From assembly GCA_950072105.1 (NCBI GenBank), contig CATMOE010000003.1, positions 32,001-96,000 on the forward strand: a DNA stretch of 64,000 nt. The letters are read 5' to 3'. Positions 241 to 40,393 of this stretch are shown here, in pieces; the stretch's first letter is position 1, and each line of letters begins with the position of its first letter. Both the position numbers and the translations under genes were made by a program. Below the pieces are notes generated by a model. The model did no database searches and was not told the DNA's origin. It saw only the letters and a program-made list of their open reading frames with translations. The stretch comes from an uncultured Dehalococcoidia bacterium. GTDB taxonomy: Bacteria; Chloroflexota; Dehalococcoidia; Lucifugimonadales; UBA3495.

Positions 241-1173
241 ATGCGAATATGTTCCTTTTTGCCTAGCGCTACGGAAATCTTGTACCAACTGGGTCTGCAA
301 GACCAGCTTTACGGCGTGACCCACGAATGCGACTTCCCGGCGGAAGCCAAGGAAAAACCCAACGTGGTTCACAGCGTGTTCGATGGCATGGAACCCACCA
401 GCGGGGAGATCAGCCGAGTAATCTCTGAGCGATTAGAACAAGGTCTTGGTATCTACGACATAGACCTGGAAGTGTTGTCTGCCGCTCAACCGGACCTGTT
501 GTTGACTCAAGCCATCTGCGAAGTTTGAGCCGTCTCGTCTCGGCAGGTGGCCGAGGTAACCGCGGGATTGGCCAAGCAACCGGAAGTTATCTCCCTGGAT
601 CCTCAATACTTGGGGGACATATTAGAAGACATCCGGCGTGTCGGCCGGGCCACCGGCACCGAAGAAATGGCGGAGACTATCACATCCCGGCTGCAGGAAC
701 GCATCGACGCGGTGGCGGAACGGGCCTCTCAAGCCAGCAGCAAGCCGAGGGTTTTGCACTTAGAGTGGGTTGATCCGCTGATGTGCGGTGGCCACTGGGT
801 GCCCGAGATGGTGGAGTTGGCCGGTGGAGTCAACTGTTTCGGCGATAAGGACACCGGTTCCTTCCGCATGGAATGGTCTGACGTGGTAGCCAGCCGCCCC
901 GATGTCATAGTGTTCATGCCCTGCGGGTTTGAGGTGAAACGAGGATTAGAAGACGTGCCGATAGTGGCGGCGTTGGAAGGATGGGACTCATTGCCGGCGG
1001 TGGAGAACAACCGGGTTTACGTAGTCGACGCCAGCGCTTACACCAGTCGGTCGGGTCCCCGGTTGATAACCGGCTTGGAAATCATGGCGGAGATGATGCA
1101 CCCGGAGTTGTTTTCGGGGTTGATTCCAGAAGCGGGGGCGACCCGTTTGTACGGGAGCTTGGCTTCGGTTTAG
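241..1173 (+). CDS. Cobalamin/Fe-siderophore ABC solute-binding protein (BtuF-like), probable selenoprotein with UGA at 526-528
   Basis: ORFs 241-528 and 547-1173 share a frame. Joined they read RICSFLPSATEILYQLG..GVTHECDFP..TQAICEV(UGA)AVSSRQV..LEWVDP..GGHWVPEMVELAGG..SRSGPRL; the family usually has CxVCAV here. Confidence 0.85.
539..555 (+). promoter_or_regulatory. Putative bacterial SECIS hairpin
   Basis: CTCGGC-AGGTG-GCCGAG; the stem starts at +11 after the UGA. Confidence 0.65.
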
Positions 1174-36088: not shown

Positions 36089-36208
36089 CCCCCTACGCTC
36101 AACCAAAAAATCCGCAAAAAATTCCACCTAAATCCACGTCTGACCGTTGCTTGCCCATCGCCAGCGGCCCGGTTAGAATGATTTGTATACGGTTCTTCGG
36201 GAGGGACA

Positions 36209-36769
36209 ATGGCCACCAACGACACCGCTCAACGCAACCGCTTTTCCGACACTTTTGGCTACGCATCCGGCCGGGCCGCAACCAAAGTAGTCGGCAAAAT
36301 GACCCCTTACGTGCAGGAGTTCATCCAGAATGCCCCCTTTGTGATTCAGGCCAGCGCCGACGCCGACGGCAATTGCGACGCCTCCCCCAAAGGCGGCAAG
36401 CCGGGGTTCGTCAAAGTACTGGACGAAAAGCACCTCGTATTCCCGGACGTGGCCGGCAACAAGCTATTCCAGACCTATCAAAACCTTGATAGCAACTCCC
36501 ACATCGGACTCCTCTTCCTCATTCCCGGTGTCAACGATGTTGTCCGAGTCAATGGGCGCGTTACCATCGTAGACCAAGAGGAATTGGAAAAAATGGATGT
36601 CGAAGTCGCTCTCTTCGAGATCGACGAGCGGTCTCACCACCTGCAAGGAATCGTTATCGAAGTGGACGAGTCGTATACCCATTGTCCCAGGGCCCTGAAG
36701 TTCTCTGATCTTTGGAATCCAGAGACCATCTCGGCCAACATCGCTGAACGCCCGATTGCGGACCGATAA
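36209..36769 (+). CDS. Pyridoxamine 5'-phosphate oxidase-like FMN-binding protein
   Basis: CDASPKGG.PGFV, PD..GN, IGLLFLIPG, RVNG, HCPRA. Confidence 0.88.
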   Translation: MATNDTAQRNRFSDTFGYASGRAATKVVGKMTPYVQEFIQNAPFVIQASADADGNCDASPKGGKPGFVKVLDEKHLVFPDVAGNKLFQTYQNLDSNSHIGLLFLIPGVNDVVRVNGRVTIVDQEELEKMDVEVALFEIDERSHHLQGIVIEVDESYTHCPRALKFSDLWNPETISANIAERPIADR

Positions 36770-36857
36770 CCGAATAATTCAGGACCCGAAGGCTCCTACA
36801 AGGGCTCCTCTGGACCTATCCCTGTGGAAGCCTCCAGGGAAGTAGTAGATCATCATA

Positions 36858-37636
36858 ATGGCGGTCAACCCTTTGCTGCTGCCGGTTAGAAGTATCCGGC
36901 AGATATTGGGAGGAGACCCAGGGATGCGGCGGATTTTTCACCGGTTTCCGTCGCACAAGCGGTGCAAGCAGTGTTGCGCCCCTTTCTCGGAGTCTTCGCA
37001 ATATTCTTCCGGCTGATTCAGATCAGACCCTCCCGGAAGAACCCCAATCTTTGCACGATTTGATATGAGCTGGCTCCCCCGGGCGGGGAGTTGATTGAAC
37101 TGTCTGTACTTTTCATAGATGTTCGTGGATTCACTGCTCTGTCGGAGCGCAAGTCCGCCAACGAGGTGGTGTGGCTGCTCAACCAGTTTTACAGTCTTTC
37201 CGCCGAGACCGTGTTCGCATTGGATGGGACCCTGGACAAAATGGTGGGAGACCAAGTAATGGCATTCTTCGGTGCTCCATTTCGTCCCGAAGATCACCAA
37301 AAAAGAGCGGTGGAGGCGGCCCTAACGATCGTTAGAGGAATGGACGCCATGTTTCCCGATGGCAATCCATTGTCAGTGGGTGGAGCCGTGGCCTCCGGAA
37401 GGATGTTCATGGGCAACGTGGGAGAGGGGGAGGTAAGGGATTTCACCGTAATTGGTGATGTGGTCAACACTGCGGCGCGCCTGCAAGCCGAGGCTTTGGC
37501 CGGAGAAGTGTTGGTAACCGAAGATACTTACGAGGCGCTGGGGCCCCAGATCCAGGATTTCCCGCTACGCACCCTGGAGCTACGGGGGAAGGAAACACCA
37601 GTCCCGGTTAGGGTCCTGCGTAATCATATCGTCTAG
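36858..37636 (+). CDS. Class III adenylate/guanylate cyclase with N-terminal Cys-rich domain; in-frame UGA at 37061-37063 (candidate Sec) and a 1-nt frameshift near 36980
   Basis: MAVNP..PSHKRCKQCCAP[fs]FLGVFAIFFRLIQIRPSRKNPNLCTI(UGA)YELAPPGGELIELSVLFIDVRGFT..DKMVGDQVM..FTVIGDVVNTAARLQ. Confidence 0.8.
37074..37090 (+). promoter_or_regulatory. Putative bacterial SECIS hairpin
   Basis: CTCCCC-CGGGC-GGGGAG; the stem starts at +11 after the UGA and extends by two G-U pairs. Confidence 0.65.
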
Positions 37637-37729
37637 GCCTGAAGAATATAGCCAAGAAAGCCCCGCTCGCCGCTGCGCCCGAAAATCCGTCCAGTCGAAC
37701 GGCAAATAATGTTGTGGAAAGGAAAGTGA

Positions 37730-40393
37730 TTGATGGTTTCTATATCCTCTGAGAAAATCACTCTGTCCAATGGACTCGACGTCATACTCCATGAGGATCA
37801 CGCCATTCCGTTGGTGGCGGTCAACGTCTGGTATCACGTCGGTTCTAAAGACGAAGAACAGGGCCGCACCGGTTTTGCCCATCTCTTTGAGCACATCATG
37901 TTCGAAGGGTCCAAACACCACAACAGCAGCCACTTCGACCCCCTGCAGAAAGCCGGGGCTAATCTAAACGGTTCCACCAGCTCTGACCGGACCAATTATT
38001 GGGAAGACGTACCCTCCAACTATCTGGAGCTGGCTCTATGGCTGGAGTCCGACCGCATGGGCTTTCTCTTGGACGCGGTGGACCAACAGCGGTTTGACGT
38101 CCAACGGGACGTTGTGAAAAACGAGCGCCGGCAGTCCTACGAAAACCGGCCGTACGGGATGGCTTCCTGGGAGATTCAAGAAGCACTGTTCCCCATGCCG
38201 CATCCCTACCATTGGATGACCATCGGATCCCAGGAAGACCTGGACGCCGCATCCCTGGAGGATGTGAAAGACTTCTTCCGCCGCTACTATTCCCCTTCCA
38301 ATAGCAGCCTTGCCGTGGTGGGTGACTTCCGGCGGGACGAAGCTCTGGAACTGGTCAACCGGTACTTCGGCGATCTGCCCCCCGGACCGCCTTTGCCTCG
38401 TATGGGCCGCCGGGACTCGCCGCTGGCTGGTCGGGTCGAATTGGAGATGCGGGATAAGGTATCTCTACCAAAGTTGTATATCGCTTGGCCGACACCTCCC
38501 GACATGGATCCTGACGATGCTCCCCTCGACCTTTTGCAGGGGATCCTCTCCGACGGCCTCAGCTCCCGATTGCATCGGAGTCTGGTCTACGAGAAGCAGA
38601 TCGCCCAAAGCGCGTCCGTTCGCTACCATCCCGGGGAGATTGCCGGACAGTTTGTCGTCCAGGTGACTGCCGCGGAAGGACATGATCTGGACGAGATGGA
38701 GGCTTCCGTTGACGCCGAGATAAGTCGATTGGCGACCGAGCCGCCCACCGATGAGGAGATTAACCGGGTAAAGAATCGGATCGAGTCGTCCCATTATCGC
38801 CAGCTAACGCGGATCGGCGGATTTGGCGGTCTTGCCGACCAGTTGAACCACTACAACATCATGGCCGGCGACCCCGAGATGGTTAACACCAGCTTGGACC
38901 GCTATCTTGCCGTACAGCGGGACGATATTCTCCGGGTCCACGAATCGGTCCTTGACCATCGTCAGGTCAGGCTACGGGTGATGCCGGAGCAGCCGCTCAA
39001 GCCAGCGGTTACCTCGGTGGACCGCTGGAAGATGCCCGAGCCGGCTCCGGAACCGGCATTCACTCCCCCTATGCCCGTTCGCCATCAGTTGAGCAACGGT
39101 ATGGGTATTGCCGTCGTGGAACGCCGTGGCGCACCCATAGTCTCTTTCGCTTTGGTCCTTCGCGCCGGGGCCGTGGCTGACCCCGAGGACTTGCCCGGTT
39201 TGGCCAGCTTCACCGCTCAGATGTTGATGGAAGGGACCGAGGGCCGTACCAGCCTGGAAATCGCTAATGCCGCCGAGTTCATTGGGGCTCGGATTTCCTC
39301 GGACGCTCGCAGAGAATACACTCTTCTATCCAGCGAAACCTTAACCAAACACTGGCCGACTGCCCTTGAATTGATTGCCGACCTAGTCAAGCGGCCCACC
39401 TTCCCTGAGCACGAACTGGAGCGGGTAAGGCGGGAGCATTTGACCGACCTGCGAAGGGGGAAAGACGACCCCACCATAGTCGCGGAGCGTCTGATAGCCG
39501 GTCTGGTGTTCTCCAAGGATAGCGGCTACGGACACTACATTTTGGGCACGGAAGCCTCGGCGTCTGCTCTGACACGCCAAGATCTGCAACAGCTTTTCCA
39601 AGGGGTTTATACTCCGGGACGAGCGACACTGGTCGTTGTGGGCGACACCAACCTGGAAGAGGTTACTGAACAGGCTCAGGATCTCTTCGGTGATTGGTCC
39701 GGAAATGGCGCCGGCTATATTCCCCGAACCGTCGACGACACGAACGGCTCGACGCCGGCCACCACGATATATCTGGTAGACCAACCGGGCGCCGCTCAAT
39801 CGGTCATCCGTGCGCTCCAACCAACGATACCCCGCAATCATCCCGACTATTTCGGCCTTACGTTGGTCAACTATGTCTTTGGCGGCCAATTCTCCGCCCG
39901 CCTGAACCAGAACCTTCGCCAAGACAAGGGATACAGCTACGGCTATCAGTCGTCGGTCCATTGGTATCAAGGAACGTCCTTGGTGTCAGCCGGGGGCAGC
40001 GTACAGACCGAAGTAACCAAAGAGTCAGTTCAGGAAACACTTAAAGAGTTTCGGGAGATTCAAGGTGATCGGCCGATCACCGAGGAAGAGCTTTCGGCGG
40101 CAAAAGCCGGCATCTTACAAGGTTATCCTGCCAGCTTCGAGCGGTCGGGGATGGTGTTGAACCACCTGATTCAACTGTTGGTGTTCGACCTGCCCGACGA
40201 CTACTTCCAGTCGGTTGGCCCAGGGATAACCGCTGTTTCGCTGAAAGACGTTCACCGTGTTGCCGCTGAACGGATCCAAACCGACAAACTCCAATTGCTG
40301 GTGGTGGGAGACCGCGAAAAAATAGAACCCGGTCTGCGGGAGTTGGGCATTCCCATGGTCTTGCTGGATGCTGACGGCGCCCGTATCGGCTGA
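37730..40393 (+). CDS. M16 family zinc protease
   Basis: WYHVGSKDE..GFAHLFEHIMFEGS (HxxEH), VVKNERRQ; second half has SARLNQNLRQDKGYSYG. Confidence 0.93.
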   Translation: MMVSISSEKITLSNGLDVILHEDHAIPLVAVNVWYHVGSKDEEQGRTGFAHLFEHIMFEGSKHHNSSHFDPLQKAGANLNGSTSSDRTNYWEDVPSNYLELALWLESDRMGFLLDAVDQQRFDVQRDVVKNERRQSYENRPYGMASWEIQEALFPMPHPYHWMTIGSQEDLDAASLEDVKDFFRRYYSPSNSSLAVVGDFRRDEALELVNRYFGDLPPGPPLPRMGRRDSPLAGRVELEMRDKVSLPKLYIAWPTPPDMDPDDAPLDLLQGILSDGLSSRLHRSLVYEKQIAQSASVRYHPGEIAGQFVVQVTAAEGHDLDEMEASVDAEISRLATEPPTDEEINRVKNRIESSHYRQLTRIGGFGGLADQLNHYNIMAGDPEMVNTSLDRYLAVQRDDILRVHESVLDHRQVRLRVMPEQPLKPAVTSVDRWKMPEPAPEPAFTPPMPVRHQLSNGMGIAVVERRGAPIVSFALVLRAGAVADPEDLPGLASFTAQMLMEGTEGRTSLEIANAAEFIGARISSDARREYTLLSSETLTKHWPTALELIADLVKRPTFPEHELERVRREHLTDLRRGKDDPTIVAERLIAGLVFSKDSGYGHYILGTEASASALTRQDLQQLFQGVYTPGRATLVVVGDTNLEEVTEQAQDLFGDWSGNGAGYIPRTVDDTNGSTPATTIYLVDQPGAAQSVIRALQPTIPRNHPDYFGLTLVNYVFGGQFSARLNQNLRQDKGYSYGYQSSVHWYQGTSLVSAGGSVQTEVTKESVQETLKEFREIQGDRPITEEELSAAKAGILQGYPASFERSGMVLNHLIQLLVFDLPDDYFQSVGPGITAVSLKDVHRVAAERIQTDKLQLLVVGDREKIEPGLRELGIPMVLLDADGARIG

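Follow-up and report, generated by a model that had tools for sequence, protein, structure and literature searches.

The UGA codon at positions 37061-37063 of the window (the whole stretch of DNA analysed here, 64,000 nucleotides from an uncultured Dehalococcoidia bacterium) occupies, as judged by alignment, the fourth ligand position of an N-terminal CxxC-x26-CxxC module that is fused to a class III nucleotide cyclase, and it almost certainly encodes selenocysteine (Sec). The favored reading, to which a probability of roughly 60% is assigned, is that Sec is part of a four-ligand metal-site sensor that would gate cAMP synthesis. Comparison of the gene with its relatives supports UGA/Cys alternation at this codon, selection for a SECIS hairpin, presence of the Sec machinery and intact catalytic residues. 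The family is predicted to comprise soluble class III adenylate cyclases of ~260 aa that synthesize cAMP as homodimers, and Sec appears to be the fourth ligand in many Chloroflexota, most of them Dehalococcoidia. The original prediction of a selenoprotein class III cyclase with a CxxC..CxxU domain is supported by the homologs, the Sec machinery and an extra C found in other assemblies. If true, a Sec cyclase would be a direct link between the chemistry of selenium and cAMP signalling in Chloroflexota that are abundant in the sea and in soil, and the findings point to a family of signalling enzymes with selenium that has been overlooked.

Gene layout and the two alleles of the locus

The TGA that had been noted upstream of the cyclase ORF is indeed seen in the window, where it lies within RPSRKNPNLCTI*YELAPPGG and shares the frame of the cyclase ORF at 37091-37636. 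The frame that begins at ATG 36858 (MAVNP...RCKQCCAPF) differs from that of the cyclase and, as assembled, stops after 52 residues; the interval 36858-37636 is 779 nt, i.e., a multiple of three minus one, and no single frame runs from ATG to stop in this genome, which carries the C4 allele of a short C-run. The predicted continuity of ATG 36858 and RCKQCCAPF with the cyclase is therefore found in the C5 allele, but in the C4 allele of the window the two stand in separate frames. With the extra C restored, the product is 259 aa carrying C36, C39, C66 and U69. ATG 36858..36860 (+ strand) is the probable start codon, since similarity to a relative (G004) and to full-length homologs reaches upstream of M23 (42% across the 40 initial codons). 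A second ATG, at 36924-36926, is an alternative start, with a strong Shine-Dalgarno-like GGGAGGAG located at 36908-36915. The first knuckle of the module, C36-K-Q-C39, is at 36963..36974 (+), and both of its Cys are invariant in 116 N-terminal sequences, which were picked for presence of this first CxxC motif. The second knuckle, C66-T-I-U69, is at 37052..37063 (+) and ends in the putative Sec codon.

The C-run, in which a missing base near 36980 had been claimed, is at 36979..36982 (CCCC, + strand), and assemblies of four runs were compared with the window over 36200-38200. The extra C at exactly that change is present behind 36978, making a C5 run, in the contigs of run X6 (DNA, depth 59.9, the whole 2 kb in one piece with no other letter changed) and run X14 (an RNA library, depth 29.1, with a long contig over the gene that is otherwise identical). 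The contig of run X3 (depth 28.3) equals the window exactly, without the extra C, and run X20 had no raw reads covering the gene; X3 and X6 had both been flagged as possible sources of the window DNA. Sampled words of the sequence were present at 1.00 in runs X1 and X2 vs. 0.99 in X6, which suggests that the C4 form may occur in further studies. Both the C4 and C5 alleles exist in independent assemblies. The missing base thus stands on X6 and X14, but the X3 contig supports C4, such that the copy in this genome may be a natural null; that C4 is a real null allele rather than an error is judged probable. The frameshifted copy probably yields no full-length protein, with near-identical populations holding the intact allele. 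The RNA-library origin of the X14 contig does not by itself imply transcription of the gene. An intact copy with the TGA (L157) is present in a cultured strain, Ca. Lucifugimonas marina JH545, and it is the allele of this genome that is broken, not the family.

Two other genes of the cAMP pathway in this genome, a second cyclase (G000:C127:3498-4040) and a cNMP-binding protein (G000:C51:23239-23484), have an in-frame TAG each. Together with the frameshift, these stops hint at decay of cAMP signalling in this population. One intact cNMP-binding protein is present, a possible cAMP receptor.

Evidence for selenocysteine at the UGA codon

Among 204 related loci (best hits, not a prevalence sample, with identical flanks removed and the off-frame pattern matches L092, L130 and L134 dropped), the fourth-ligand codon is TGA in 35, the window included, TGC or TGT in 120, and TAA or TAG in none. 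A TAG flagged in L262 proved to be a normal stop, and one additional TGA copy with a variant motif (L234) lies outside the 35. As had been anticipated, homologs have Cys or TGA at this codon and similarity on both sides of it. Synonymous changes are equally frequent upstream and downstream of the TGA, and two of 17 TGA genes (L046 and L052) have no in-frame start codon between the TGA and the first catalytic Asp. Downstream frames are broken in three of the 35 TGA genes and in L234, and the catalytic motifs are lost in L233.

The 35 TGA genes come from 29 genomes and two metagenome contigs, and all 29 genomes have selA or selB. Twelve genomes of one family without selA, 94-99% complete, have Cys forms only, and among the 50 named genomes tested (of 59), all 22 without a selA match carry the Cys form. 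An order-wide search gave matches in 27 of 301 genomes, with exactly one TGA in 21 of the 41 matches (16 genomes); more loci came from samples at phylum and class level and from scans of metagenomes and genomes. Among 39 relatives an orthologue is found only in G004 (64%, with the same TGA, an intact frame and the same neighbours), G023 has a distant TGA form, and the gene was not found in either same-genus genome. There is no conserved operon, neighbour genes being conserved only in G004, and a promoter/terminator scan found none, matching chance expectation. Cys forms were found in Actinomycetota, in other Chloroflexota and in a few further phyla. The closest named database proteins of the cyclase are from the SAR202 cluster, and the runs that contain the sequence are marine, both of which indicate a marine Dehalococcoidia. 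On a FastTree tree of 132 proteins, ten of them database proteins scored Cys from their letters, 11 Sec/Cys changes are needed, at least seven of which are forced by strong branches, with their direction unpolarized. L063, a Cys gene that adjoins TGA genes L052 and L235 on the tree, retains part of the hairpin sequence, as a recent change from Sec to Cys would predict.

The genome (92% complete, 6% contamination) contains selA, selB, a Sec-type selD with an in-frame TGA of its own, and tRNA-Sec, which are all four of the components named in the original prediction. All 37 SelD matches, found in 36 of 40 relatives, contain a single TGA. General recoding of TGA in this genome was rejected, as 561 of 2013 long ORFs end in TGA. 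Parts of BSepDB record two Dehalococcoidia with 46 and 49 selenoprotein genes. A motif-plus-hairpin scan of the genome returned 133 candidates, mostly noise; when seven of these were compared with models, one scored above the reductase selenoprotein A cut-off and one above the CC/Se cut-off, three had below-cut-off matches (BtuF-, ArsC- and glutaredoxin-like) and two had no match. Within the window, a BtuF-like ABC substrate-binding protein gene at 241-1173 (+) has a TGA at 526-528, in a CEV-U motif, with a hairpin 16 nt after the UGA, and fits the listed BtuF CxxU selenoprotein type. Two other UGA candidates, L238 (G000:C34:15231, CYP-U) and L241 (G000:C12:32797, LC-U), have hairpins of 7-8 pairs and no Pfam or NCBIfam match; they could be further unlisted selenoproteins, or chance. 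Elsewhere in the genome, G000:C23:17631-22111 holds 29 tRNA genes in 4.5 kb on a single strand, with many anticodons duplicated. Such duplicated-anticodon tRNA arrays are typical of phage or mobile elements. A short match to the first 37 positions of selB (G000:C10:42575-42682) lies ~1 kb upstream of the intact selB.

The 6-bp hairpin said to begin at +11 after the UGA is present: its stem, CTCCCC/GGGGAG from 37074, has nine pairs with G-U, and its CGGGC loop starts 16 nt after the UGA. This bacterial SECIS-type element (37071..37093, + strand) overlaps the LAPPGGEL codons. With its loop, 8-9 pairs, spacing of 16 and -15.9 kcal/mol, it falls within the bSECIS model of PMC13188914 Fig 2A (loop 3-9 nt, G within the initial two positions, stem 4-16 bp, 16-37 nt from the UGA, MFE <= -7.5). 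By energy the window hairpin alone is not unusual (z = -0.92, 36 of 200 shuffles as good), and its support is therefore comparative. Since the loose model is too permissive, being passed by 17/17 TGA and 17/29 Cys genes, a position-fixed test (a perfect stem of at least 6 pairs, G in the loop) was adopted instead. By this test the hairpin follows 27 of the 35 TGAs vs. 6 of the 120 Cys codons, counts in which related genes are not independent, although several separate clades show the pattern; eight of the 35 TGA genes fall below a 6-pair stem. In an earlier set, 18 of 23 TGA genes had the hairpin vs. 3.3 expected from synonymous resampling, and it followed 15 of 559 true TGA stops of this genome. 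Among genes that encode PPGG, the hairpin codons CCC CCG GGN GGG are used in 14/14 TGA vs. 1/19 Cys genes, and in members with a 2-residue insertion the CGGGN loop is at 22 rather than 16 nt, a 6-nt shift.

It is very improbable that the TGA is a real stop, the genes being decayed or split and the cyclase starting anew downstream of it. The second lesion in this allele and the TAG codons of the other two cAMP-pathway genes would accord with it, as would the gene calls, which place the start of most close homologs beyond the TGA (of the 120 closest database proteins, 108 have no CxxC in the first 95 residues). However, 35 independent-looking genes, diverged down to ~35% identity, share this codon, which is always TGA; these genes are confined to Sec-capable genomes, use SECIS-specific codons and conserve coding on both sides. 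Decay, which would have undone the original prediction, describes this frameshifted allele but not the 35 TGA loci. The skipped read-through exposes a systematic annotation error, in which the UGA truncates most of the close database proteins. A 98-aa 'hypothetical' cluster of the Atlas, commonest in Chloroflexota, resembles the module alone and may be such a truncation.

The N-terminal module and its proposed role

The module is matched by no Pfam or NCBIfam model, and even its Cys form, to which 1071 cluster representatives match by profile, is without a family model. Among the best 150 of these 1071, 88 lead directly into the start of a cyclase, 23 are of insufficient length, and the 39 others are irregular, mostly resembling frameshifted cyclases. 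Its sole similarities, all weak, are to zinc fingers, including L34e at E 0.024 over both knuckles. A fold search with the module model (pLDDT 70) gave RING/S14-type matches below significance (VIA Z 2.0-2.7; Foldseek E above 3), and PDB fold searches returned nothing significant, an absence that is no proof of a new fold. In the AF2 model of the G004 protein (pLDDT 92, pTM 0.89), the second knuckle is on helix 62-66, directly before strand 73-84.

In the mechanism proposed, the ~60-aa CxxC-x~26-CxxC module would form a compact four-ligand metal site, most likely a treble-clef-like Zn finger. SelB and tRNA-Sec would insert Sec at the UGA, directed by a SECIS hairpin built into the downstream PPGG codons, and Sec, 19 residues ahead of the first catalytic Asp, would lie on a short helix, where its selenolate may serve as a labile ligand. 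Zn would then be displaced, and the helix moved, on oxidation or on exposure to a soft metal (Hg, Cd, Cu), and the helix and PPGG linker would couple the module to the dimer active site, such that the cAMP output of the homodimer changes. A sensor role for the module, as a redox or metal switch, is thus plausible; counted against it are the fold matches below significance and the six TGA genes that have no first CxxC.

A MerC-like N-terminal membrane domain is present in 24 of 39 long homologs (P0187, P0188, P0272-P0308), which are of the Cys form; CxxC is found in the N-terminal part in 18 of 40 members of this fusion group. At 55-68% identity to the query, the fusions are one close Cys-form group and represent one event. 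The MerC-like domain, four-Cys module and class III cyclase form a conserved fusion that is possibly a metal-sensing cyclase in its own right, and in the literature searched no paper joins MerC, adenylate cyclase, mercury and fusion. The fusion, together with the high Se-Hg affinity noted in parts of 10.1101/2022.07.06.499078, makes soft metals a candidate input.

An alternative in which no metal is involved, with CxxU a selenenylsulfide/dithiol redox switch for whose resetting these genomes have many thioredoxin-fold selenoproteins, is unlikely. Six TGA members (L029, L055, L058, L061, L237, L258) keep CxxU without the first CxxC, and for these a free CxxU redox pair is the better fit; in Table 1 of PMC13188914 no redox motif is commoner than CxxU, and this genome has glutaredoxin/ArsC-like and reductase selenoprotein candidates. 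Nevertheless, both knuckles are kept in 118 of the 120 Cys rows and in 28 of the 35 TGA rows, the module is without a thioredoxin fold and weakly resembles zinc fingers instead, and in all six exceptions U is followed, three residues on, by a His that may act as a ligand. The six make up a Sec-only subgroup (CxxU-x2-HW) in which His or Asn replaces the adenine-specifying substrate Lys; they may be a diverged subfamily, and may act on another substrate or on none.

A shade less likely again is a purely structural Zn site, in which Sec is a tolerated or stabilising swap and selenium-dependent production is the only regulation. The frequent Sec/Cys switching on the tree would be expected of such a site, as would the persistence of Cys forms in selA-positive genomes (27 of 49 Cys loci) and the location of the UGA upstream of the catalytic domain, where translation depends on Sec supply. 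Yet Sec recurs at just one of the four ligands and requires a selected SECIS, and the module is the sole accessory domain of an enzyme class whose bacterial members, according to parts of PMC4821796, typically have regulatory N-terminal domains. Quite improbable is an iron-sulfur cluster or single iron that senses O2 or NO; four invariant Cys/Sec ligands would suit it, and ferredoxin-linked class IIIb cyclases are described in parts of PMC4821796, but the spacing and weak matches are zinc-finger-like and, of 116 members, just one gave a hit to an Fe-S model (E 0.041).

The preferred metal-site sensor can be extended, more tentatively, to a first Sec-gated second-messenger synthase: a Cys3-Sec zinc finger that would read soft-metal (mercury-type) or oxidant exposure into cAMP, in an enzyme that would be produced solely under selenium supply, as its UGA lies ahead of the catalytic domain, with Sec gained or lost repeatedly at the same ligand and convergent SECIS hairpins. 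As the family supplies natural Sec/Cys pairs, an easy cAMP read-out and a cultured carrier, the benefit of Sec as a zinc-finger ligand is directly testable.

Novelty and comparison with known systems

Full-text literature searches returned no report of a selenoprotein cyclase, a CxxC-x26-CxxC module or a MerC-cyclase fusion. Deng et al. 2026 reportedly have unvalidated new selenoprotein candidates from 44,000 MAGs, which could include a cyclase family. In the literature covered, which excludes that work and Haft and Tolstoy 2025, the genes described here, which belong to the known class III cyclases, make up a selenoprotein family that is new and that carries a sensor-like module not described before. 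The 119 prokaryotic selenoprotein families in Table 1 of PMC13188914 (2026) are oxidoreductases or have transport or metal-handling roles; none makes a nucleotide second messenger, no cyclase is among them, and the word is absent from the text. The word 'cyclase' is also absent from the BSepDB main text, the deep-Sep text and four supplements, SelCysML, and Haft and Gwadz 2022.

The C-terminal 180 aa (37100..37636, + strand) are a class III cyclase domain (PF00211, E 8e-21) whose nearest known relatives are Cya2, CyaB and CyaC. The catalytic motifs DVRGFT, DKMVGD and DFTVIGDVVNTAAR include all six residues when aligned to CyaB, namely D88, K128, D132, T197, N204 and R208 (numbered on the in-frame allele); these we take to be the two metal-binding Asp, the substrate Lys and Thr/Asp, and the transition-state Asn and Arg. 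CyaB (P. aeruginosa, PDB 3R5G), CyaC (S. platensis, PDB 1WC0) and Cya2 (2W01) have the same catalytic fold (Foldseek vs. class IIIb cyclases E 2e-19, TM by target 0.8; phmmer E 3e-22), but are without the N-terminal four-ligand module and without Sec. Both Asp and the Lys, Thr, Asn and Arg are as in CyaB, whereas in the guanylyl cyclase Cya2 Glu stands in place of the Lys, and ATP is therefore the likely substrate.

For the module, the treble-clef zinc fingers of ribosomal L34e, ClpX C4, DksA/TraR and GATA likewise have two CxxC knuckles, the second at a helix start, although every hit to them is sub-threshold, with fold Z below 3. Among listed selenoproteins, the FmdB-family regulatory protein TIGR02605, the dual CXXC small protein NF041197 and Trx7/PDZ NF041199 (PMC13188914 Table 1) also have Sec for Cys in CxxC-type motifs, with the SECIS right after the UGA as here, but 0 of 116 module sequences match them at E 0.01 and none is a nucleotide cyclase. 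The working analogy for the proposed sensor is DgcZ, in which, as described in parts of PMC8262984, oxidation of a zinc-binding Cys of the CZB domain controls Zn occupancy and c-di-GMP synthesis; in both, a cyclase for a nucleotide second messenger is, or in the present case would be, under the control of a zinc site that has a reactive chalcogen ligand. DgcZ is a GGDEF enzyme that makes c-di-GMP rather than a class III enzyme that makes cAMP, and its CZB is a different zinc domain with Cys in place of Sec, such that the likeness is one of principle, with no homology claimed.
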